Part shown: positions 2,931 to 38,103 of the stretch, one piece after another | Layout: each line of letters opens with the position of its first letter | How positions within the stretch are numbered: position 1 is the stretch's first letter | Origin: Candidatus Taylorbacteria bacterium RIFCSPHIGHO2_02_FULL_44_12 | GTDB taxonomy: Bacteria > Patescibacteriota > Minisyncoccia > Phycocordibacterales > PALSA-1337 | Length of the DNA: 40,802 bases | Assembly (NCBI GenBank): GCA_001822575.1 | Contig: MHRM01000012.1 | Location: 6,846-47,647, forward strand | Direction: 5' to 3' | Translations under genes and position numbers: made by a program | The notes under the pieces: model-generated | Databases searched by the model: none | The model's input: the letters and a program-made list of their open reading frames with translations, nothing else | What the model was told of the DNA's origin: nothing

Positions 2931-4622
2931 ATGGCAGAAAATAATCCCTTGTCGATAATCATCGACAACGATTTAAATATTGTAGTCAACAACCCTTGGG
3001 TGGAGAAACTTGTTGCTGAAATCCGCCAGACCGGTAACGGCCAAGCAACGGTATGGCCTTCACAGGAAGTAAAGATGCCAATGGGGACTGATAACAAGGT
3101 CAGCCTTGACAACCTAAAGAGAAATATCTCTCCTGTTCCTCCCGGCTCGTACAGGGCAATAATCAAGGCCATCTACGCAATGGATGCCGGAGGAGAAACC
3201 GAAGAGAAGGTTATTGCATTCAAATTGACCAAAGAGCAGATAGACTGGCTATCGGCTCCGGCGATCAAGCCTCCAAAACCGACTATGCAACATCCACCAG
3301 AACCCACTTCTGAAGCGTCCGGGCAAGAAGAAGCCCAGCAGATGCTGAAAGAAGTTGAGGAAAGGGCAAGTGCCCGACTTGAGGAGGAGCGAAGAAGAGA
3401 AGCGGCTGCAAAACCGCCCACTCCACTTCCAGCAGCAAAAGTGCAACCGAAAAAGGAGACAGTTCGCATCTACTTGCCTTCGGCTCCAGCTGAGCCTGCC
3501 CCCGGAGCTCCAGTTGAAGAAAAGCCGGCACCATCGAAGGTGGCACCCGCTCAACCACAGGAAGACTTGCGAATCGGACTTCAAGCTGAGCGGATCAAAA
3601 AACAGGAAGCTGAAAAAGCTCAGCTTGCCAAACAACTTGAGGAGGAAAAGCGCGCTGCTCAAACGATCGTTGAGGAGGAGAAGAAAAAAACTGCCGAGGC
3701 TCAGAGGCTAGCTGCGGAATTAACTCTTCGATTGACGGCCGCTCAAGCATCGGTGACCGCAGCTCAAGCTGCTGCACCTCCAAGCGAGATGGTGAACTTC
3801 CAAAAAAAACTGGATGCCCTCGCCGCCAAAACCGCATCGCTGTCTCAACTTCCGCCCAACCCCCCACCACCCATTGAGGAAAAATCGTCTGACAAAAAAA
3901 CAGACAAACTTCGGGAGATTGCAAAAAAAGGCCTCCCTTGGTGGTTCATTGTCGGACTGGTGGCGCTCCTCTCTTTGATAGGAGGAACCATCTTCAAGAA
4001 AATGGTGTGGGAAAAGAGAGTAACCGACACACTCCCTCATTCCGGCGGTGCCTTGCAATCATTGCAAGAGGAAAACAAGGCGCTCAAAGAGTTGTTGGCA
4101 AGTAAATCCGTTTCTCCCGCCGCCATCCCAACGCCGACTAATGTCGCAGATGTCGGTGGCGCATCGCCCACCCCAACCAGTCCGGTTGGTAGTGGTGGAC
4201 AGTCTGTGGTGGTCAGTGGAAGCGGCAATGCTTTCCACGCTCCCCTCATCCTGAATGGAGCACACATTCCTCTGGTACCCGTGAGTTGGTTGTGCGTCAG
4301 CACAACAAATTCATTCTCGGTGCCGTCGGGATTGAACCTCCGCACTGGAACCGTGGTCTATTCTTGGGAGGAAGAACTCCTTCCGGGCCAGATCATGGAT
4401 CGACTCATAGATGGTCCCGAGTGGGAACTGTCTTATGAAGTCCGAGGTTTCAAATACCCTGTCATTGACACGGCCATATGCCTCAACAGCAAATGGGTTG
4501 AAACCTCCCAGTGGTCGTCATCGGATCGATCTGGGATCCCCACCACCGGCCAGCGTTTCAGAATTATTCCTGGAATGCAGTCTGTGACTATCACCTTCAC
4601 AGTGAGGAAAATCCGCCGCTAG
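2931..4622 (+). CDS. Large single-pass membrane protein with a Pro/Glu/Lys/Ala-rich coiled-coil region and a beta-rich C-terminal domain (hypothetical)
   Basis: The ORF is open from a TTG at 2883, and the first ATG is at 2931 (MAENNPLSIII...). It has a TolA-like charged helical stretch (EEERRREAAAKPP..., KKQEAEKAQLAKQLEEEKRAAQTIVEEEKKK). There is one TM helix (LPWWFIVGLVALLSLIGGTIF), then a PT-rich linker and a ~150-aa C-terminal domain. The start codon is uncertain. Confidence 0.6.
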   Translation: MAENNPLSIIIDNDLNIVVNNPWVEKLVAEIRQTGNGQATVWPSQEVKMPMGTDNKVSLDNLKRNISPVPPGSYRAIIKAIYAMDAGGETEEKVIAFKLTKEQIDWLSAPAIKPPKPTMQHPPEPTSEASGQEEAQQMLKEVEERASARLEEERRREAAAKPPTPLPAAKVQPKKETVRIYLPSAPAEPAPGAPVEEKPAPSKVAPAQPQEDLRIGLQAERIKKQEAEKAQLAKQLEEEKRAAQTIVEEEKKKTAEAQRLAAELTLRLTAAQASVTAAQAAAPPSEMVNFQKKLDALAAKTASLSQLPPNPPPPIEEKSSDKKTDKLREIAKKGLPWWFIVGLVALLSLIGGTIFKKMVWEKRVTDTLPHSGGALQSLQEENKALKELLASKSVSPAAIPTPTNVADVGGASPTPTSPVGSGGQSVVVSGSGNAFHAPLILNGAHIPLVPVSWLCVSTTNSFSVPSGLNLRTGTVVYSWEEELLPGQIMDRLIDGPEWELSYEVRGFKYPVIDTAICLNSKWVETSQWSSSDRSGIPTTGQRFRIIPGMQSVTITFTVRKIRR

Positions 4623-4647
4623 GGCAGAATCCTCACTTCGCAGATTG

Positions 4648-4697
4648 CCCCCGTGTAGTGCATGCTTTACAGCGTGTATTACCGGGGGTGATTTTTT
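4648..4697 (+). terminator. Candidate terminator
   Basis: The stem pairs CCCCCGTGTA with TACCGGGGG (9 bp with one bulge and a long loop). It is followed by TGATTTTTT, 26 nt after the stop codon. Confidence 0.45.
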
Positions 4698-6500: not shown

Positions 6501-6588
6501 CAAAAAATCCCCCGTAGTCGAATCCCCCTTTGAAAAAGGGGTGGATTGATGCCGAGCGAAGCGAGGTATCAAGAGGGGGGATTTTTGG
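6501..6588. repeat. Nested palindromic element at a convergent gene junction (likely bidirectional terminator)
   Basis: The outer stem pairs AAAAATCCCCC (6503-6513) with GGGGGATTTTT (6576-6586). The inner hairpin is AATCCCCCTTT-GAAA-AAGGGGTGGATT. A/T runs lie on both sides. Confidence 0.65.
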
Positions 6589-6596
6589 CAAGGGAT

Positions 6597-6881
6597 TCAA
6601 ATCCCCTTGAGTGTATTTGACACCAGATAAATAATGCCCCAGGCCGAGATCATGATGAACATCCCGATGATCCCTCCCAACATATGATTGCGGCCCTGTT
6701 CGCGAGCCGCTGGGTCTCCCCCTTTCCAGATCATTTCAAAAATCCCATAAGCAAAAACAACCACTCCGACTGCGAACATAAGTCCGACGATCGGAGTAAT
6801 TATATTTGATACTATAGGCTGTATAGCCTGCCCGAACGATTCAGGTCCTGATGCGGCGTTTGCTATAGAGGCTAGAGTCAT
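6597..6881 (-). CDS. T4SS pilin-like (TrbC/VirB2-type) small membrane protein, paralogue 1
   Basis: 94 aa with two TM helices separated by a short charged loop (KGGDPAAREQGRNHMLGGIIGMFI). It has the same architecture as the four genes upstream. Confidence 0.6.
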   Translation of the reverse strand: MTLASIANAASGPESFGQAIQPIVSNIITPIVGLMFAVGVVVFAYGIFEMIWKGGDPAAREQGRNHMLGGIIGMFIMISAWGIIYLVSNTLKGI

Positions 6882-10887: not shown

Positions 10888-11085
10888 GTTTTTCAATGTC
10901 TCGCCTTGCCTGTCCGCAAACAACGCCCAAAGCCGAATCATCTCCTTCGCAAACCCGATTTTTAAAAAAATAAAGATTATATCCTGTATACAACTCGCGT
11001 ATTGCTAAAGAATCAGGGTTTGTGAAGGAGATGATCGGCGGAGGGCGGAGGTTTGATAGCAGGCAAGGCGAGACATTACAAAAAT
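10888..11085. repeat. ~198-nt long imperfect palindrome (MITE-like) abutting the gyrA stop codon
   Basis: A perfect 18-bp inverted repeat pairs AATGTCTCGCCTTGCCTG (10895-10912) with CAGGCAAGGCGAGACATT (11060-11077). A second conserved arm block pairs GAATCATCTCCTTCGCAAACCCGATT (10935-10960) with AATCAGGGTTTGTGAAGGAGATGATC (11011-11036). Confidence 0.8.
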
Positions 11086-13868: not shown

Positions 13869-14501
13869 TCATTCTCTTTGGAGAACAATCACTTGGGAAT
13901 CTTTGCCTTCCAAATCCTTTTTCTTTAGGGTTAATTTTAACACAGGATCGGGATTTTCGCCGGCTTCTTTGAGGAAGATCTTCAGGGCGTCTTTGCCCAT
14001 CCCGTCGCCATAATGGATCGGAATAATGATCTTGGGATTTATAGTTATGGCCAGTTTGTAAGCGGCCGAAGGATCTAGTATCCCTTGTCCACCAATGGGA
14101 ATAAAAAGAATGTCCACATCGTCAATGGCTTCCTCGGCTTCTTTGGGCAAGTCGGGAGTAGATAGAGCTCCTAGGTGGCAAATACGCATGCCCTCCAAGG
14201 CCACCATGTATATTGTATTGATTCGCTCTTCGGCTTTGTATCTTGAAGTGGAAGAAAATCCAGTGATGAATACGCTCCGTATCTCATATTCCCCAGGTCC
14301 GGAAATGACAAACGGCTTTTTGTCGCCAAAAGAAACAGTGTCCACGCCATTCATGTCGGAATGATTGAGGCTGGAAAGGACGATGTCAGCTCCAAATTTT
14401 GAAGACTTCAAGCTTGAATCTTTGGATATGGGATCAAAGGCCAGAACAATCTCTCCGAACTGGATTTTGACAAATGATCCGCCAAGATAGGTGATGATCA
14501 T
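13869..14501 (-). CDS. MBL-fold metal-dependent hydrolase (UPF0173 / Lactamase_B_3-like)
   Basis: 210 aa with MIITYLGGSFVKIQ..., ADIVLSSLNHSDM and ICHLGAL...DILFIPIGG motifs, typical of this small MBL family. Confidence 0.65.
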   Translation of the reverse strand: MIITYLGGSFVKIQFGEIVLAFDPISKDSSLKSSKFGADIVLSSLNHSDMNGVDTVSFGDKKPFVISGPGEYEIRSVFITGFSSTSRYKAEERINTIYMVALEGMRICHLGALSTPDLPKEAEEAIDDVDILFIPIGGQGILDPSAAYKLAITINPKIIIPIHYGDGMGKDALKIFLKEAGENPDPVLKLTLKKKDLEGKDSQVIVLQRE

Positions 14502-14507
14502 AGTTAT

Positions 14508-14516
14508 ACATTACCA
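14508..14516 (-). promoter_or_regulatory. Extended -10 (TGGTAATGT) 6 nt upstream of the ATG (leaderless configuration)
   Basis: The minus strand reads TGGTAATGT-ATAACT-ATG(14501). Confidence 0.45.
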
Positions 14517-14525
14517 TACCTTGTC

Positions 14526-14545
14526 ATTCCCGCGAAAGCGGGAAT
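14526..14545. repeat. Short hairpin repeat ATTCCCGC-GAAA-GCGGGAAT
   Basis: A perfect 8-bp stem with a GNRA-type loop lies in the divergent intergenic region. It generates the spurious peptide SFPRKRES in ORF 14491-14676. Confidence 0.7.
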
Positions 14546-14588: not shown

Positions 14589-14677
14589 GACCCGACCCCT
14601 CTCGGCGAGACCAGCTCTCCCTTCGTTTTGCTCCGCAAAAGTCGGGAGACTGGCTCTCGCCTGCGGAGGCGGCTGAC
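14589..14677. repeat. Structured palindromic element, intergenic copy (paralogue of the hisS-internal copy)
   Basis: CCCTCTCGGCGAGACCAGCTCTCCCTTCGTTTTGCTCCGCAAAAGTCGGGAGACTGGCTCTCGCCTGCGGAGGCGGCTGAC is roughly 85% identical by eye to 29572-29660. It forms a nested hairpin of about 17 bp outside and 6 bp inside. Confidence 0.85.
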
Positions 14678-14823
14678 AGATGAAAAGGAGGTGATAATAG
14701 ACATATCAAAATCATCGTGATAGATTGAATATGTAGAGTTTTGTTGCCGTTCGTTTACCACAAAGTTCGCGTCATCCCGCACTTATCTTTATTATCAAAT
14801 AAAAAGCGGAGCGCGATTCATTC

Positions 14824-16053
14824 ATGTTCAAAAAAATAAGAGAAACCCTGTCAAGTTCAAAGAAACAAAAAACTGAAGAAACCGATCCTGTGTCAACTGA
14901 ACTAAAAGCATATCTAGGAGAGGAAACTGAAAAGAAAAAGACTATTCACTCAAGCGAAAAAAAGACAGATGTCAAAGTTATCGCCGAAAAGACTGGCGCT
15001 ATGGCTCCTTTTCTGAATATCATGAAGGATCCGCCGCAGATCGGAGATCTGGTGGAGGGTCCGGTGATTGCCGTAGAGAAGTCCTCGGTTTTTATTGACC
15101 TGCCGCCATTTGGGACCGGTATCATTTATGGCCGTGAATTTATCGTTGCCCGTGATGTCATCAAAAAGATCAATATTGGCGACATGGTGGCCGCAAAGAT
15201 CGTAGACAATGCCCACAAAGAAGGTTATTACGAATTGTCTCTGAAAGAGGCCCGCCAGGCTCTGATCTGGAGCGAAGCCGAAACAGCTATCAAGGAAAAG
15301 AAAACTCTTGACCTCTTGGTCAAAGAAGCCAATAAGGGTGGCTTACTCGTAGAATGGCAAGGGATCGTCGGTTTCCTACCAGCCTCACAACTCAAGGCCG
15401 AACATTATCCGCGGGTAACTGACGGAGACAAAGACAAGATCCTGGAAGAGCTCAAAAAACTTGTCGGCACCCGTCTATCCGTATCCATCATCGCCGCTGA
15501 TCCCAAAGAAGGCAAACTAATATTCTCGGAAAAGGGCTCCGAGCACAAAGAAAAAGAAAAGATCGTCAGCAAATACGAAATAGGCGACGAAGTGGAAGGG
15601 GTTGTGACCGGAGTGGTTGATTTTGGAGTCTTTGTCAAACTAGAAGAGGGACTGGAGGGCCTAGTCCATATATCCGAAATAGATTGGGGTCTGGTGGACG
15701 ATCCACGCAATTTTCTCAAAGTTGGCCAAAATATCCGAGCCAAAATCATAGAGATCAAAGACGGCAAGATCTCTCTATCTCTCAAACAGCTCAAAGCCAA
15801 CCCCTGGGTGGAAGCCGCCAAAAAATACAAAAAAGACAGCCTTGTTACGGGTGTAATCATCAAATTTAACAAACACGGAGCTCTGGCTTCGGTAGAGGAA
15901 GGAGTAGCGGGATTGGTTCATATTTCAGAATTTGGTTCCGAAGAAAAACTCCGATCGGCCCTTGAATTGGGCAAAACCTACCCATTCAAGATCACTCTCT
16001 TTGATCCCAAAGACCAAAAGATGGCGTTGTCATATGGTGCAGAGAAGAAGTAA
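14824..16053 (+). CDS. rpsA: 30S ribosomal protein S1 (four S1 domains, Lys/Glu-rich N-terminal extension)
   Basis: 409 aa with repeated S1 motifs (GDLVEGPV..., GYYELSLK, GDEVEGVVTGVVDFGVFVKL, GLVHISE twice). A GGAG lies 14 nt upstream of the ATG. Confidence 0.85.
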   Translation: MFKKIRETLSSSKKQKTEETDPVSTELKAYLGEETEKKKTIHSSEKKTDVKVIAEKTGAMAPFLNIMKDPPQIGDLVEGPVIAVEKSSVFIDLPPFGTGIIYGREFIVARDVIKKINIGDMVAAKIVDNAHKEGYYELSLKEARQALIWSEAETAIKEKKTLDLLVKEANKGGLLVEWQGIVGFLPASQLKAEHYPRVTDGDKDKILEELKKLVGTRLSVSIIAADPKEGKLIFSEKGSEHKEKEKIVSKYEIGDEVEGVVTGVVDFGVFVKLEEGLEGLVHISEIDWGLVDDPRNFLKVGQNIRAKIIEIKDGKISLSLKQLKANPWVEAAKKYKKDSLVTGVIIKFNKHGALASVEEGVAGLVHISEFGSEEKLRSALELGKTYPFKITLFDPKDQKMALSYGAEKK

Positions 16054-17388: not shown

Positions 17389-18625
17389 TCTCCGCAATAA
17401 AAAAGGAGATTCCCGATTTGTCTCCCGTGAGCATCTGGACAAGATTGGCGAAACTGCCGTTTATTACGGATTCATGCCCATAAAAAGCCCCGTGATATCC
17501 AAGACCGATCTGGAAATAGCCCGAGGTTTTGTTGAAGCAGATTATGTGGACGATCAAACAGAACTTCATAGCCATTTGCCCCTACATGTCGAAGAAAAGA
17601 TCGCTCTCATCCGGGCCTATAGCGAAAGAAATATGGACAGCTTGCCCCAACCGGTCATGCTCTACCTCAAAGATCCTGGCCGTGGTTCGACCAAGAAGAC
17701 CGAAGATCGCCGTTATGCCGATTTGGAAATCATAGGAGTATCTGGAAGTATAGCTGAAGCCTTGCTCATTCAGACTTCGCGAGCGATCTTGGCCGAAGAA
17801 GGATATCGTCATATCGCTGTGGAGATCAATTCATTGGGAGACAAGGACTCCATGGCCCGTTTTGCTAGGGAGCTCTCGGCTTACTATCGCAAAAACATCA
17901 ATACCATGTCCCCCGAATGCCGCCAACTCTTCAAGCGCGATCCTTTCAAGCTGTTGTCTTCCTCCGAAGAATCCTGCCTTGAGCTCAATAAGCTAGCTCC
18001 CAGGTCCATGGATTTCCTGCCGGAAGCCAGTCGCAGACATCTAGAAGAAGTCCTTGAATATTTGGAAACTCTAAAAATACCGTACATTATCAATAATAGT
18101 CTAATAGGCAATCGTTCTTATTGCTCCGAAACCATATTCACCATCGTCAATACCGACCCGGCTAATAAGAAGTCAAAAGATTCTCGGATTTTGGCTTTGG
18201 GAGTGAGTTGGAATAATTTGGGGAAACATGTCGGGATCAAACGAGATATTTCCGGGGTGGGATTATCCATACTTATAAAGGGACGTGTGACAGGACTACG
18301 CAAACCTATAGGCAAAGTCAAAAGACCGATTGCCGCTTTTGTTCAGCTAGGCATGGAATCAAAACTACTTTCTCTGAAGGTCATAGAGAGTCTACGCCAG
18401 GTCAAGATCCCTCTCCATTTTTCTCTGGCCAAAGACCGCCTAGGGGCCCAAGTTTCTTCAATGGACAAACTCCATACACCCTATGTCATAGTGATCGGCA
18501 AGAAAGAAGCGGTAGAGCGAACCGCCATAGTCCGCCGAACCGACACCTACTCCCAAGACATCGTCCCATTGGCCGACCTCCCCAACTACATGAAAAAGGC
18601 CGAGAAAAAGTATTTTGGGAAGTAG
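17366..18625 (+). CDS. Histidyl-tRNA synthetase-like paralogue with degenerate catalytic motifs and an intact HGTP-type anticodon-binding domain
   Basis: The bacterial HisRS topology is conserved (VEINSLGDKDSMARFARELSAYYRKN...RDPFKLLSS...LETLKIPYIINNSLIGNRSYCSETIF). Motif 2 (expected fRYErPQxGRxREF) reads MLYLKDPGRGSTKK, and motif 3 (expected GGRYD) reads LALGVSWNNL. The C-terminal 90 aa is anticodon-binding-domain-like. The start was taken at the ATG at 17366 (MTKIIHANL). Confidence 0.6.
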   Translation: MTKIIHANLRNKKGDSRFVSREHLDKIGETAVYYGFMPIKSPVISKTDLEIARGFVEADYVDDQTELHSHLPLHVEEKIALIRAYSERNMDSLPQPVMLYLKDPGRGSTKKTEDRRYADLEIIGVSGSIAEALLIQTSRAILAEEGYRHIAVEINSLGDKDSMARFARELSAYYRKNINTMSPECRQLFKRDPFKLLSSSEESCLELNKLAPRSMDFLPEASRRHLEEVLEYLETLKIPYIINNSLIGNRSYCSETIFTIVNTDPANKKSKDSRILALGVSWNNLGKHVGIKRDISGVGLSILIKGRVTGLRKPIGKVKRPIAAFVQLGMESKLLSLKVIESLRQVKIPLHFSLAKDRLGAQVSSMDKLHTPYVIVIGKKEAVERTAIVRRTDTYSQDIVPLADLPNYMKKAEKKYFGK

Positions 18626-18682
18626 GGCTTGCCATTCGACGGGGCGACCTTGCGGAGAGGAAAAAGAATGTTTGCCAGGATC
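18623..18682. repeat. Half-copy of the GGGYTTRCCATTC...TTGCG...AATGTTYGCC repeat family
   Basis: TAGGGCTTGCCATTCGACGGGGCGACCTTGCGGAGAGGAAAAAGAATGTTTGCCAGGATC aligns with 27556-27615 and 36121-36186. Its first three bases are the stop codon of the upstream gene. Confidence 0.75.
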
Positions 18683-24221: not shown

Positions 24222-24397
24222 GCAAACTTTAATAGTATTTTGTGAGCCGAGTACTTGTTTGAGCGTCGTGGACGATTGTTAGGTATGCGAAGGCTTTTGA
24301 TATGGACAAGATAATATCTTGTTACTCCAAGCCGAGCAGACCTTACAATACGTCAGACGCGAGTCACGCAGGCTCACAAAATACTATTAAAGTTTGC
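24222..24397. repeat. 176-nt element bounded by perfect 27-bp inverted repeats (MITE-like / long hairpin) at a convergent junction
   Basis: GCAAACTTTAATAGTATTTTGTGAGCC (24222-24248) pairs with GGCTCACAAAATACTATTAAAGTTTGC (24371-24397). The interior is also partly self-complementary (ACGATTGTTAGGT / ACCTTACAATACGT, and a central ACAAGATA-A-TATCTTGT). Confidence 0.85.
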
Positions 24398-27467: not shown

Positions 27468-27615
27468 GCCCGACGAACATGTGCCCTGCGCTGCCTCGCA
27501 ATGCGTTTGAGCCCCCGAGAATGACCCCTATTTTGGTCGCTCCCGCGAGCCAAAATAGGGTTTGCCATTCGACGGGGCGACCTTGCGAGGCAGCGCGGGG
27601 CACATGTTCGTCTGG
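27468..27615. repeat. 148-nt palindromic element made of two inverted half-units, in the pilB-pilC intergenic region
   Basis: The 30-bp outer stem pairs GACGAACATGTGCCCTGCGCTGCCTCGCAA (27472-27501) with TTGCGAGGCAGCGCGGGGCACATGTTCGTC (27583-27612), with one G-T pair. The central hairpin is CCCTATTTTGG-TCGC-TCCC-GCGA-G-CCAAAATAGGG (27526-27560). Single half-units occur at 18623-18682 and 36121-36186. Confidence 0.85.
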
Positions 27616-28910: not shown

Positions 28911-30314
28911 ATGAAAAAAAGTGTCCTATCAACCGAGCCATACAAGGGCGTCCGTGATTTTTTCCCCGCGGATATGGCCGCGGAAAGAAAGATTTTTGAT
29001 ATTTGGAGAAAAACTGTGGAAAAGTACGGCTATGAAGAGTACGGAGCCTCCGTCCTGGAGCCAGCCGAACTATACAGAGCCAAAAGCGGTGAAGAGCTTG
29101 TCAATGAGCAGACATACACTTTCACCGACCGAGGCGACCGCCAAGTCACTCTCCGCCCAGAGATGACTCCGACTGTGGCTAGAATGGTATCAGCCAAGCG
29201 ACGCGAGCTGTCTTTCCCTCTTCGCTGGTACTCTATACCCAACTTATTCCGATATGAACAACCCCAGCGTGGCCGTCTGCGTGAGCACTGGCAGCTCAAT
29301 GTGGATATTTTTGGCGTTGAATCCATAAATGCCGAGATAGAAATCATCAGTATCGCCCATGATATCGTTTGTGCTTATGGCCTCAAAGAGAACGATTTTG
29401 AGATCAGAATCAACAATAGGAAGCTGATGAATTACCTATTCAAAGAAGTTTTTGGCTTGAATGAGGAGGCTACCAAGAAGATGTCTAGACTGATAGATAA
29501 GAAAAATAAAATCTCAAAAGAGGATTTTGAGAAAGGTGTCAGAGAAGTTTTTGACAATCTCACAATTACATCACCGCGCCCTCTCGGCGAGAGCAGCTCT
29601 CCCTTCGTTTCGCAAGCGAAAGTGGGGAGACTGCTCCCGCCTGTGGGTGCGGCTAACGGGAAACTTTCTGATAAATTACTTTCCCTATTAAACTCCCAAA
29701 CCCTTGAAGAATTATCTTCTCAACTGCCAAAAAATGTGGGAGAAAATGAAGGAATAAAAGAGATCCAAAATGTAATTCAAAACCTAGAGAAACTCGGCAT
29801 AACCAATGTCCGTTTTGACCAGTCCTTGATGCGTGGCTTTGATTATTATACCGGGATTGTCTTTGAGATATTTGACCAGAACCCCGTCAATAAGCGTTCT
29901 GTTTTTGGCGGAGGTCGATATGACGATCTCCTGTCAATTTTTGGCGGAGATAAAATTCCAGCTGTGGGATTCGGAGCTGGCGATGTGGCGGCCCGAGATC
30001 TTATGGAGACTTATGGCAATATTTCAGAGACTGATTCATCGGCTGATTTGTATATTTGCACAATTGGAAAACAAAATATTTCCTATGCCTTGAAACTGGC
30101 CCAAAAGCTGCGCCAAAATGAGACCCGAGTTACGGTTGATTTTTCCGAAAAGAAAGTCGGCGACCAGATAGCTTCGGCTGTTAAATATGGTATTCCCAAA
30201 GTCATCTGCATTGGAGACGAAGAAGTGAAAACCACCAAGTTCAAAATTAAAACCCTTGAAACAGGCCAGGAAGTCACTGTCCAGGAAGAAGAACTAATCA
30301 AGAGTCTATTGTAA
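28911..30314 (+). CDS. hisS: Histidine--tRNA ligase (catalytically canonical), carrying an in-frame repeat-derived insertion
   Basis: 467 aa. Motif 1 is LRPEMT, motif 2 is FRYEQPQRGRLREHWQLNVDIFG and motif 3 is GGGRYDDL. GFDYYTG and a C-terminal anticodon-binding domain are also present. Confidence 0.92.
   Translation: MKKSVLSTEPYKGVRDFFPADMAAERKIFDIWRKTVEKYGYEEYGASVLEPAELYRAKSGEELVNEQTYTFTDRGDRQVTLRPEMTPTVARMVSAKRRELSFPLRWYSIPNLFRYEQPQRGRLREHWQLNVDIFGVESINAEIEIISIAHDIVCAYGLKENDFEIRINNRKLMNYLFKEVFGLNEEATKKMSRLIDKKNKISKEDFEKGVREVFDNLTITSPRPLGESSSPFVSQAKVGRLLPPVGAANGKLSDKLLSLLNSQTLEELSSQLPKNVGENEGIKEIQNVIQNLEKLGITNVRFDQSLMRGFDYYTGIVFEIFDQNPVNKRSVFGGGRYDDLLSIFGGDKIPAVGFGAGDVAARDLMETYGNISETDSSADLYICTIGKQNISYALKLAQKLRQNETRVTVDFSEKKVGDQIASAVKYGIPKVICIGDEEVKTTKFKIKTLETGQEVTVQEEELIKSLL
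29572..29660. repeat. Structured palindromic element inside the hisS reading frame (translated as ...SPRPLGESSSPFVSQAKVGRLLPPVGAANG...)
   Basis: It is a nucleotide-level paralogue of intergenic 14589-14677. It folds into the same nested hairpin, with compensatory changes in the stems. Confidence 0.85.
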
Positions 30315-31793: not shown

Positions 31794-31919
31794 CCGCAAA
31801 AAACTCCTCACATTCTTGTGGAGACATTGCCAGAGGCCTCAAACCACAGAATCTAAACTTTAGACATAAATATTTGAATCAAGATGAGTCTCCACAAGAA
31901 TGTGAGGAGTTTTTTGCGG
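31794..31919. repeat. 126-nt element bounded by perfect 32-bp inverted repeats at a convergent junction
   Basis: CCGCAAAAAACTCCTCACATTCTTGTGGAGAC (31794-31825) pairs with GTCTCCACAAGAATGTGAGGAGTTTTTTGCGG (31888-31919), with a 62-nt spacer. Confidence 0.9.
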
Positions 31920-36091: not shown

Positions 36092-36120
36092 ATTGTACGC
36101 TATTTTGTGATAATACGCAA
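36092..36120 (-). promoter_or_regulatory. rpoD promoter TTGCGT-17-TACAAT in the dnaG-rpoD spacer
   Basis: The minus strand reads TTGCGT-ATTATCACAAAATAGCG-TACAAT. The leader to the ATG is 32 nt. Confidence 0.5.
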
Positions 36121-36186
36121 TAGGGTTTACCATTCTCGGGGGCTCAAACTACATTGCGGGGAAGTAAAAGAATGTTCGCCGGGCTC
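36121..36186. repeat. Half-copy of the GGGYTTRCCATTC...TTGCG...AATGTTYGCC repeat family
   Basis: TAGGGTTTACCATTCTCGGGGGCTCAAACTACATTGCGGGGAAGTAAAAGAATGTTCGCCGGGCTC. Its reverse complement aligns closely with the left half of 27468-27615 (GAGCCCCCGAGAATG..., CGCAATG..., CGAACAT...). Confidence 0.8.
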
Positions 36187-36201: not shown

Positions 36202-38103
36202 TCATTGCATACCGGATGATGATGCCTTGGCTTTTCTGGCTGACAATTCCTGACATTTCCTAGCCAATTCCGCCACTTTGTGATGTTCTCCGGATTTTTC
36301 CGCCAAACGCAATTCTTTCATCGTATCCATCAGATCTTCATTGATGATATCTCTTTCAAAATTTGAAAGTATCTCTCTAAAATGTTTGTCCCACCCCGCT
36401 TGATCACTGCCAAAGTAGGCCTCGGCTTCAAAAGCCAAATCGGCCATAACCATATCGGCCTGTTTTGCCCGTCTTTGATAAGAATCACCGGCAATCTTCT
36501 TTAGATGATCGCGATATTCTTTGGCTTGAGGAAGGTTATCTTTGTCCATCAGATATAAGATTCCGAACAATTGCCGTTCGGCTCTATCAACATTTTTGAC
36601 TATTTCACTACTTGTCCGCGAAGACTTTGTAGATACGACAGTCTTTGGGTCCGCCGCCTTCAAGCGATTGGCAATGACTTTTAGATCATTCCAAATAACA
36701 TCTTCATTGGCTATTCCGGCTCTATCGCGGATCATCCCAACAAAATGTCCTTTGTCGGTTTCTTTTTCTATATTCACTAATAGCGGAAAGACTCGTTCTT
36801 GAAGGGCTTGAAGTGTCTTCCGTCTATCGGTTATTTCAGCCAAAACATTATCCAGTTCAAATTCCACCACATTCTTGGCTTGACGGAGCGATTGCCTCCA
36901 TAATTCAACATTTTCCTTGACCAAGTCGGCTGGATCTTTGCCGCCTATGATATCGGCAATCTTGACATCCATCCCTATGGACAAAGCGATACCTGCGGCT
37001 CGCAAGGCGGCCTTGCGGCCAGCCAGATCAGAATCAAAAGCAATGATAACATTGGGAGACAGTCTGCGAATAAGGCCTAGATTGTTTACAACCCCCTCTT
37101 TGCTCACTGATCCATCAGAAAGAGCGGTTCCAGAAGCGGCAACGGTATTGCGCACTCCGGCCTGATGTGACAAGACCAAGTCCATCTGCCCTTCTACCAA
37201 AATAGAATAATTCAACCGCCGAATCTCACTCTTAGCTTTGTCCAAACCATACAAAACAGAGGACTTGTCATATAGAGGAGTGTCTGGGCTATTAAGATAT
37301 TTGGCCGACTTGCCATCGTCCTTGACGATTCTACCAGAGAATCCAACTACCCTCCCGCCGGAATCCATGATTGGAAACATTACTCTACCGCGAAACCGAT
37401 CGTAATAGTGTTGTGAGGTTTTACTAGAATTATTGTCTGTAGGGACGGCGATGAAGCCGACCGTTTTGGCAAGCGCGAGCGTAGCGGAGCGTGAGCTGCG
37501 AGCGTTTGCCAAAACAGCGGCGGAAGAAGCCGTCCCTACAGAAGTATCCTCCCACACATCAGTTTCCTTGCGTTTGATCAAACCCACTTTATCTAGCAGT
37601 AGATCATTCCAATTCTTTCTCTTCAAATGATCACGGAGATTGCTCCAGCCTTCCGGCGCCCAACCCAATCTGAAAGTTTTTTGGCTTTCAGCGGAAATGC
37701 CTCTACTTTTGAGATATTCTTGAGCGAGTGGGGATTTGGAGTATTGATCTTCAAAGAATTGAGTGGCTGTTTCCATGATCTGAAACAATATATCGCGCTC
37801 TCCATCGGCTTTGCGGTCAACAGTCAGAGTTACGCCAGCTTTTTCCGCCAAGATCTTAAGAGCTCCCCGAAAATCCAATCCTTCAAACTGTTGAATAAAA
37901 GAAAATATATCGCCCTTTGCTCCGCAACCAAAACAATAGTACCCGCCACGATCCGGCGAGACGAAAAAAGATGGGCTCTTTTCATTGTGAAAAGGACATT
38001 TTGCCTTGTAAGATTTGCCAGCTTTTTCCAATTTGACATAGGTGCCTACCACTTCATCTATAGGCAAACGGCTCTTTATTTCTTCTACGGCGCTCCGATT
38101 CAT
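36202..38103 (-). CDS. dnaG: DNA primase, carrying an in-frame palindromic insertion
   Basis: 633 aa with the zinc ribbon CPFHNEKSPSFFVSPDRGGYYCFGCGAKGD, YDRFRGRVMFPI, and TOPRIM (ILVEGQMD, AFDSDLAG). Confidence 0.92.
   Translation of the reverse strand: MNRSAVEEIKSRLPIDEVVGTYVKLEKAGKSYKAKCPFHNEKSPSFFVSPDRGGYYCFGCGAKGDIFSFIQQFEGLDFRGALKILAEKAGVTLTVDRKADGERDILFQIMETATQFFEDQYSKSPLAQEYLKSRGISAESQKTFRLGWAPEGWSNLRDHLKRKNWNDLLLDKVGLIKRKETDVWEDTSVGTASSAAVLANARSSRSATLALAKTVGFIAVPTDNNSSKTSQHYYDRFRGRVMFPIMDSGGRVVGFSGRIVKDDGKSAKYLNSPDTPLYDKSSVLYGLDKAKSEIRRLNYSILVEGQMDLVLSHQAGVRNTVAASGTALSDGSVSKEGVVNNLGLIRRLSPNVIIAFDSDLAGRKAALRAAGIALSIGMDVKIADIIGGKDPADLVKENVELWRQSLRQAKNVVEFELDNVLAEITDRRKTLQALQERVFPLLVNIEKETDKGHFVGMIRDRAGIANEDVIWNDLKVIANRLKAADPKTVVSTKSSRTSSEIVKNVDRAERQLFGILYLMDKDNLPQAKEYRDHLKKIAGDSYQRRAKQADMVMADLAFEAEAYFGSDQAGWDKHFREILSNFERDIINEDLMDTMKELRLAEKSGEHHKVAELARKCQELSARKAKASSSGMQ
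37437..37541. repeat. 105-nt palindromic element inside the dnaG reading frame (exactly 35 codons: SVGTASSAAVLANARSSRSATLALAKTVGFIAVPT)
   Basis: The outer stem pairs CTGTAGGGACGGC (37437-37449) with GCCGTCCCTACAG (37529-37541). The inner stem pairs GTTTTGGCAA with TTGCCAAAAC. It lies just upstream, in protein terms, of the conserved YDRFRGRVMFPI block. Confidence 0.85.

Follow-up and report, generated by a model that had tools for sequence, protein, structure and literature searches.

The histidyl-tRNA synthetase (HisRS) gene hisS of Candidatus Taylorbacteria bacterium RIFCSPHIGHO2_02_FULL_44_12 contains a palindromic segment in its reading frame, which is, with a probability of about 0.78, one copy of a palindromic repeat that is dispersed, non-autonomous, rich in GC, and ~87 bp long, similar in shape to REPINs and to miniature transposable elements with inverted repeats (MITEs), and situated in a permissive surface loop of the enzyme. 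The repeat, here termed family A, was analyzed in a 40,802-nt stretch of this genome (contig MHRM01000012.1, positions 6,846 to 47,647; hereafter the window), which also carries an intergenic paralogue (Table 1). Family A has a covarying hairpin, and in a related genome its intragenic copies preserve the frames of their host genes and are read in multiple frames. The family appears to live in genomes of the Paceibacteria, and structure modeling places the hisS copy, provisionally, between two helices of the HisRS insertion domain.

The hisS element and its intergenic paralogue

An initial annotation of this DNA had claimed that a segment of hisS matches an intergenic segment at the nucleotide level, that both fold into the same nested hairpin, and that the differences between them keep the pairing. 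Each of these observations was reproduced. Both sequences are found where they had been located, with a global pairwise identity of 83% (71/86), and the intergenic copy lies in a 322-nt spacer between a gene for a metallo-beta-lactamase-fold protein (13869-14501, - strand) and a gene for an S1-domain protein (14824-16053, + strand). When a 25-mer of the common 5′ arm was searched with up to three mismatches, matches were obtained at these two sites of the window only, compared with 0.00 in shuffled sequence; furthermore, a covariance model of the family detected two copies, and no others, in the whole window. Each copy forms one long hairpin; the minimum free energy (MFE) is -53.9 kcal/mol in hisS (z = -5.6) and -45.9 kcal/mol in the intergenic paralogue (z = -4.1). 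No shuffled sequence reached the fold strength of either copy, and the reverse strands of both fold as strongly. Among family-A copies, the MFE ranges from -46 to -56 kcal/mol and z from -4.1 to -5.6. The paired differences that had been named between the two window copies are real—that is, TTTCGC/GCGAAA versus TTTTGC/GCAAAA in the inner stem, and GCAG/CTGC versus CCAG/CTGG in the outer-stem block. The window copy is practically free of stop codons in all six frames. With the six translated frames joined as one query, no match was obtained at E up to 10 in an index of 5.8 billion proteins, probably because such matches are too short and compositionally biased.

Upstream of the intergenic copy, at a distance of ~50 nt, lies a small palindrome, GTCATTCCCGCGAAAGCGGGAATCCAG (14516-14545). 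Its form is ATTCCC-N8-GGGAAT, which we take to be that of the neisserial dRS3 repeat, and an exact 18-mer of it reportedly appears in a paper on Neisseria.

Host gene and site of insertion

The HisRS encoded in the window matches HisRS chains of the PDB at E = 5e-81. It is identical to OHA24136.1/OHA30971.1 of Candidatus Taylorbacteria, in keeping with the view, already taken in the initial annotation, that the genome is of the type found in the candidate phyla radiation (CPR), and its nearest homologues are all from Patescibacteria/Paceibacteria. The closest solved structures to this bacterial enzyme are archaeal (Thermoplasma 1wu7) and eukaryotic (Trypanosoma 3hri and 3hrk); none is bacterial.

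The hisS copy reads SPRPLGESSSPFVSQAKVGRLLPPVGAANG, corresponding to residues 221-250 of HisRS. Alignment of the protein to solved HisRS structures falls into two blocks, between which the window protein has 43-68 residues where 1wu7 and 3hri have 10-33. Because the linker is short in the solved structures, the element represents an insertion between motif 2 and motif 3, in frame within the hisS open reading frame (ORF), as had been claimed. In the alignment of HisRS orthologues, the site is empty in many proteins (419-445 aa) and filled in others, so that the segment is an insertion relative to many orthologues as well. Two 432-aa members of the HisRS cluster were considered as empty-site alleles and rejected; they are N-terminal truncations in which the element is still present. 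In a mediocre AlphaFold2 model (31 orthologues; mean predicted local distance difference test score, pLDDT, 62.6), residues 219-247 form a coil with pLDDT below 50, between confident helices at 203-215 and 249-260. Tryptic peptides predicted from the sequence of the insert include PLGESSSPFVSQAK and LLPPVGAANGK.

A dispersed family in a related genome

A scan of one genome per species, covering 185,579 species, with the exact pattern CCTCTCGGCGANANCAGCTC returned 33 loci. Fourteen of these, with 15 matches, came from a single metagenome-assembled genome (MAG), CAYHFU01, which is labeled uncultured Ca. Saccharibacteria; the remaining loci are single, hairpin-less matches in high-GC genomes, at about chance expectation. 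A covariance model (R1), built on 11 diverse copies, identified 18 copies in the CAYHFU01 loci (~100 kb examined), so that the family extends well beyond the two copies on which the initial annotation was based. Twelve of the 18 are intragenic and lie in long open frames of housekeeping genes, namely those for LigA, a PfkB kinase, PyrD, MnmA, a UvrD-type helicase, Ndh2 (ndh), UvrB (two copies), a PIF1-like helicase, RecG, DnaE, and SMC. Pfam domains flank the intragenic copies on either side, or up to the contig end. The CAYHFU01 copies form a near-identical population around a master sequence. Relative to the host genes, the intragenic ones lie in both orientations, and four frames are used to read them, with PRPLGD... 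and TPALSATT... as sense-frame readings, and AAPAGENSPPRGACDETEELLSPRGRG and RRPQARAVLREELATRRR as antisense-frame readings.

Two metagenome contigs from the Hainich aquifer are identical to CAYHFU01 loci, and come from the same sample as the contig of the HisRS orthologue P0002; P0002 thus most likely belongs to the CAYHFU01 organism. This protein bears on a point of the initial annotation, which had named a homologous peptide at the same place in an orthologue, with no nucleotide similarity to noncoding loci, as evidence against a repeat. P0002 (68% identical) does have a homologous peptide, but the DNA encoding its insert is 92-95% identical to dispersed copies in its own genome, and the insert is therefore a member of the repeat family. 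A scan of JGI metagenomes yielded only the same Hainich organism and one more partial copy, the rest being chance matches. Among viral contigs, five pattern matches were obtained, none of which is a true copy by the covariance model; a phage-borne source of family A is not supported.

In CAYHFU01, a second palindromic family of ~105 nt, GTYAGCCGCCTCGACCGTCG...GAGGGAGAGGCGG, directly adjoins family-A copies in four loci (L010, L015, L023, and L036), and is read in frame (…PPLPPRHDEVSHIRCARSTLVAGSTVEAADA…) in PyrD, UvrB, and PfkB. Its terminus GTCAGCCGCCTC, the first 12 nt, is also found on the reverse strand of the intergenic copy in the window.

Conservation of the DNA hairpin

In an alignment of 11 sequences, 94.1% of the stem cells pair, compared with 40-55% for partners displaced by 1-3 columns. 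Changes on both sides were observed for 11 of the 25 stem pairs, and none of 500 shuffles reached the observed values. One stem position has an A-T pair in part of the CAYHFU01 copies and a G-C pair in all the rest, with no exception. One-sided changes through G-U are rare, and the double changes are nearly all from one Watson-Crick pair to another. Since both strands fold alike, copies occur in both orientations, and G-U pairs are rare, the constraint on the element looks like one on DNA palindromy or mobility rather than on RNA structure.

The level of conservation is the nucleotide sequence and not the peptide, as four frames, in both orientations, serve to read the same DNA. The interpretation given in the initial annotation is supported in each part open to test, and its claim that selection acts on nucleic-acid structure rather than on the peptide holds with qualifications: the peptide is not conserved and the hairpin covaries, but the constraint appears to operate at the level of DNA, and selection on structure is not the sole way to keep a palindrome, templated repair from arm to arm being sufficient as well.

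The identity of the hisS element between the window and a second orthologous locus, L002, is 80%, compared with 65% for the flanking hisS sequence and 38% for third codon positions. Between the L002 hisS copy and paralogues at other sites of that genome, the identity is 92-95%. This pattern of identities is consistent with recent insertion, or homogenization by the family, and not with an old, freely drifting protein loop.

Recurrent occupation of the same loops

Six filled HisRS orthologues were read as DNA (those of the window, L002, L003, L048, L049, and L050), and all six carry a strong hairpin at the loop (z from -4.1 to -8.9). The inserts of L003 and L049 score as diverged relatives of family A (66 and 42 bits, respectively); they have the outer ends CACCGCG...CGCGGCTGAC in common, or match the model, with very different cores. 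L049 contains its own variant in both hisS and uvrD, in the same frame. The insert of L048 is a nested dRS3-like palindrome of a different type, GTCATTCCCGC...GCGGGAATGAC, and that of L050 belongs to yet another palindrome family. In addition, VIPAKAGIQ and LDSRFRGND, two translations of the palindrome at 14516-14545, occur as insert peptides of the HisRS loop in P0006, P0012, P0016, and P0033; dRS3-like HisRS inserts are suggested by the peptides of P0006, P0015, and P0016 and were seen as nested palindromic DNA in L048 only.

Loops of other proteins are occupied in a similar way. One UvrD loop is empty in the window, is filled by family A in L033, and contains a 140-nt nested palindrome (z = -8.1) in L050. 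Short variable stretches at or near this UvrD site in L003 and L048 show no hairpin (z from +0.7 to -1.5), indicating that hairpins are not general to variable loops. In the window, a second in-frame palindrome, of an unrelated family, is located in dnaG (Table 1) and is the strongest hairpin of the window in a local hairpin scan. It is read as approximately residues 187-223 and splits the DNAG_N domain, which matches in two stretches; DnaG of Aquifex (2au3) has 15 residues where the window DnaG has 66. No further copy of this palindrome was found in the sequences examined.

A hairpin at the hisS position in all six of these orthologues, together with its very stable fold and the retention of pairing by compensatory changes, might also be expected of a selected cis-acting hairpin of the hisS transcript or locus that regulates HisRS expression—for example by pausing, by attenuation, by RNase III cleavage, or by protein binding—with the intergenic copy acting alike upstream of the S1-domain gene. 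Such a role is very unlikely, as the family occurs in both orientations and in a dozen functionally unrelated host genes, many HisRS orthologues lack the insert, and the families found at the site differ. Furthermore, the two strands fold equally well, a U-tract is absent 3′ of the hisS hairpin, and Rfam gave no match at E up to 1 around the element, nor any match at gathering thresholds in the whole window. The two tRNAs of the window identified with ARAGORN are ordinary and lie far from the element.

Alternatively, the insert may be an old, vertically inherited loop of Paceibacteria HisRS, not mobile, in which the palindrome has been kept by template switching or arm-to-arm correction and from which pieces have spread by ectopic gene conversion. 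Filling of the same loop in many orthologues, always by a hairpin where the DNA was read, agrees with this idea, as do the shared outer ends or model matches of L003 and L049 around very different cores; Watson-Crick double changes with few G-U intermediates are what arm-to-arm copying gives, and neither an empty/filled allele pair nor a transposase was seen. However, vertical inheritance does not readily account for the occurrence in one MAG of 18 nearly identical copies, in spacers and in genes that are unrelated, with both orientations and four frames represented, or for a hisS copy in L002 that is closer to its own paralogues than to its positional orthologue in the window. Moreover, the site in L048 holds a different, widely dispersed type of palindrome, and the insert is absent from many orthologues. 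An old immobile loop is thus considered unlikely, and insertion of a dispersed repeat remains the preferred explanation.

Strain differences and assembly

Over 21,404 nt, L001, a contig of another assembly, matches the window exactly apart from 8 substitutions; all of these fall in the element, at 29604-29661. A similar clustering was observed for L051, with 5 differences from the window in 2,453 nt, 4 of them within the element, and for protein variants of HisRS. These strain changes mostly break stem pairs and lie in the 3′ arm, with 7 of the 8 in L001 resulting in G or C. L001 and L051 have one change in common, 29624 G to C, which equals the base of the intergenic copy; gene conversion from the intergenic copy was rejected as a general explanation, accounting for only this one of the 8 L001 differences. 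The equally strong dnaG hairpin shows zero differences between the window and L001. The clustered differences could be real, resulting from ectopic conversion among copies or from a mutation hot spot, or could be sequencing errors provoked by the hairpin.

Disagreement of assemblies at the element, and the ending of CAYHFU01 and other contigs in or beside repeats, raise the question of whether the in-frame copy is itself an artefact of assembly or binning, caused by repeat-induced chimerism. The possibility is practically negligible: five contigs of up to 119.7 kb, recorded in NCBI (two MAGs), JGI, Logan, and ENA, encode the identical HisRS protein; three more independent assemblies have the element at the same site and in the same frame; and the 87 nt of the element are fewer than those of the last k-mer with which the ENA contigs were assembled (k141, according to their names).

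Three contigs (L014, L024, and L046), from MAG and metagenome assemblies, end within a family-A copy, and family-A repeats appear to break short-read assemblies of CPR genomes. In a same-strain assembly, L006, the sequence departs from the window at 14698, 20 nt downstream of the intergenic element. Its first 220 nt (L006:1-220) are unrelated to the window and contain a self-palindrome of their own; they are due either to faulty assembly at the repeat or to variation of the spacer.

Proposed origin, read-through, and mobility

The distribution of family A suggests that the repeat is mobile, and its open frames suggest that it is translated. With ~29 codons and almost no stops in six frames, a copy would keep the host frame at any codon phase or orientation. 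The ribosome would then read through the element and add a loop of ~29 residues, probably disordered. Selection would purge only those copies inserted at intolerant sites, leaving spacers and tolerant surface loops occupied, and such selection, acting only against intolerable sites, would explain why loops of HisRS, UvrD, and DnaG are refilled by different palindromes across lineages. The hairpin itself would be upheld at the DNA level, by being recognized by the propagation machinery, by mutual correction of the arms, or by both.

It is highly improbable that the element is instead left untranslated, either cut from the mRNA or skipped by the ribosome in the manner of the mitochondrial 'byp' elements of Magnusiomyces or the hop in T4 gene 60. 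GC-rich hairpins in an AT-richer genome are indeed the setting of known translational bypassing, which Lang and colleagues are said to have described in 2014 at elements of that kind. However, bypassed or excised elements are under no constraint to be stop-free and in frame, and the 12 intragenic CAYHFU01 copies, the hisS copies of the window, L002, L003, L048, L049, and L050, and the dnaG palindrome are all stop-free and frame-preserving. Moreover, no intron-like or bypass signal was recognized.

With respect to the mode of insertion, the 5′ flanks of 20 copies show a bias, no more than suggestive, over the three positions from -5 to -3 (T in 13, A or G in 18, and A in 13 of the 20, with a background of ~25% per base), and this T-R-A motif is similar to the motif GGCT-R-W-C at the 3′ end. 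No consistent target-site duplication was found among the 20 copies, the 5′ flank and the 3′ end being alike but not identical within a copy; the sole exception is the intergenic copy of the window, with GCTGAC on both sides. It might be speculated, with considerable doubt, that a hairpin-recognizing, single-strand HUH/Y1 transposase of the IS200/IS605 or RAYT type moves the element, inserting it 3′ of a T-R-A-rich target without duplication.

Several points weigh against a mobile, translated repeat in a surface loop. No two closely related alleles turned up of which one has the element and the other lacks it, and no transposase was present in the precomputed Pfam lists of the window and its sister contigs, CAYHFU01 not having been searched. 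Only two family-A copies are known from the organism of the window, of whose genome 40.8 kb is covered. Three CAYHFU01 copies are 88 nt long, with one extra base (GGGCGACGGCT; L015:4491-4578, L032:3052-3139, and L033:2422-2509); the host ORFs in L015 and L033 remain open across them, so that either the logic of a length always divisible by three is inexact or the boundaries of the element are not fully defined. The mediocre AlphaFold2 model makes for a weak inference of a surface loop. Finally, occupation of the HisRS site across lineages could in part reflect one old, diverged insertion.

A broader proposal, which is rather improbable, is that Paceibacteria carry populations of stop-free hairpin cassettes that recolonize loops of essential enzymes—HisRS, DnaG, UvrD, UvrB, LigA, and others—and that the cassettes are also hot spots of change. 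If the clustering of strain differences is real, through ectopic gene conversion or hairpin-targeted mutation, such elements would drive rapid diversification of core-protein loops in ultra-small bacteria; alternatively, the cassettes may serve a hairpin-dependent genome function.

Other repeats in the window

The coordinates of the features discussed are collected in Table 1.

Table 1. Features of the window (positions are those of the 40,802-nt stretch).
Feature	Position	Strand	Remarks
hisS host gene	28911..30314	+	467 aa, archaeal/eukaryote-like class II HisRS; Pfam tRNA-synt_His and HGTP_anticodon
Family-A palindromic element, hisS copy	29572..29658	+	87 nt, GC 0.67, in frame; covariance model 95.9 bits, E = 3.5e-24
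Family-A palindromic element, intergenic paralogue	14590..14678	+	Covariance model 75.6 bits, E = 1.4e-18
Second in-frame palindrome, unrelated family, in dnaG (36202-38103, -)	37436..37544	-	-65 to -70 kcal/mol
Long intergenic inverted repeats/hairpins	4581-4690, 6501-6610, 10889-11083, 24222-24397, 27469-27615, 31794-31919		None related to family A by BLAST

Six more long inverted repeats or hairpins are found in intergenic regions, with folding energies of -47 to -59 kcal/mol; some are AT-rich, with arms of 27-33 nt. The type at 6501-6610 (AAAAATCCCCC...GGGGGATTTTT, with inner CCCCTTT-AAAGGGG) is similar to the nested palindrome that uvrD of L050 carries in its reading frame. A family of direct repeats, AATAGGGTTTGCCATTCGACGGGGCGACCTTGCG..., with 81-94% identity, occurs in three spacers (18620-18682, 27553-27587, and 36119-36186), and one of these repeats is an arm of the inverted repeat at 27469-27615. 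In addition, an 11-nt palindrome, AGGTCSGACCT, occurs six times in the window (at 2796, 4742, 4866, 16083, 28849, and 30987; 0.01 expected), always in spacers at gene ends and in one case ~50 nt upstream of the start of hisS; it may represent a binding site or the core of a terminator.

Comparison with known systems and significance

If family A is what it appears to be, some of the lineage-specific insertions responsible for the divergent look of CPR proteins would have a concrete source in it, with a bearing on alignment trimming and on phylogenomics of markers such as aminoacyl-tRNA synthetases, DnaG, and UvrB. The repeats also help to account for contig breaks in CPR MAGs. Furthermore, covariance model R1 offers a handle for counting the elements and for seeking the enzyme that mobilizes them.

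Among known mobile hairpins, the GC clusters and 'byp' elements of yeast mitochondria are similar to family A in invading coding genes of an AT-richer genome. However, byp elements break the frame and are skipped, whereas family A is stop-free and frame-preserving, which argues for read-through and not for bypass. The PATEs of Haloquadratum, derived from IS200/IS605 (PMC3119063), are likewise small, hairpin-bearing elements, and the T-R-A flank and GGCT-R-W-C end of family A resemble the left-target and right-cleavage tetranucleotides of IS200/IS605 elements, which insert with no duplication, although the flank bias is weak. Neither TnpA nor TnpB was identified for family A, and PATEs are not known for pervasive in-frame insertion.

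MITEs with in-frame fusions, as described for Coxiella (QMITE1; PMC5896051), for the ERIC/RU elements of enterobacteria (PMC2759123), and in Anabaena, are comparable in being small and non-autonomous, with open frames and sometimes intragenic fusions. MITEs, however, are mostly intergenic and have terminal inverted repeats and target-site duplications, whereas family A is a whole palindrome that is mostly intragenic, with no consistent duplication. No insertion sequence element was seen in the sequences examined.

Repetitive extragenic palindromes (REPs) and REPINs, which are mobilized by RAYTs, i.e., IS200/IS605-like Y1 transposases, are closer in shape. Both they and family A are imperfect palindromes, rich in GC and alike in size, each of which folds into a single long hairpin; both occur as near-identical copies around a master sequence within one genome, and are constrained at the DNA level on either strand. 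REPs are nevertheless essentially extragenic, whereas 12 of 18 family-A copies in CAYHFU01 and 1 of 2 in the window are intragenic; family A also lacks a 5′ tetranucleotide of the GTAG type, and no RAYT appears in the precomputed Pfam lists for the window.

The nearest parallel in behavior is that of the Rickettsia palindromic elements (RPEs), which the initial annotation had cited as the precedent for translated palindromic selfish elements. RPEs (Ogata et al., 2000, 2002) are described, in a 2024 review (PMC10969869), as elements of ~100-150 nt, each family of which encodes one conserved peptide, and as unusual in their frequency of in-frame insertion. Like RPEs, family A consists of palindromes dispersed in frame in many unrelated housekeeping genes, and also in spacers, of a bacterium that has a small genome and depends on a host; the ORFs carrying a copy remain intact, the added peptide presumably lies where the protein tolerates it, and a transposase or clear target duplication is known for neither. 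The two differ in that RPEs occur in Alphaproteobacteria and family A in Patescibacteria, with no sequence relationship shown between them. Family A is, moreover, an 87-nt, near-perfect, single GC-rich hairpin with at least four reading frames in use over its two orientations, and so does not share the feature of one peptide per family; in addition, the loops of its hosts are refilled by different families across lineages. By descent, family A thus does not appear to belong to the RPEs.

Full-text searches of one literature library did not link RPEs, MITEs, REPs, or palindromic elements to CPR, Patescibacteria, or Parcubacteria, in agreement with the earlier impression that no equivalent had been described for such genomes, although this is no proof of novelty. 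Frequent in-frame palindromic selfish DNA has so far been regarded as nearly unique to Rickettsia, and a second, unrelated case in the CPR suggests that such elements recur in small, host-dependent genomes of high coding density, where spacer is scarce. Overall, family A is closest to RPEs in behavior and to REPINs in shape, and may, by analogy, be regarded as a family of protein-coding palindromic selfish repeats in a new phylum—that is, as a putative CPR analogue of the RPEs.

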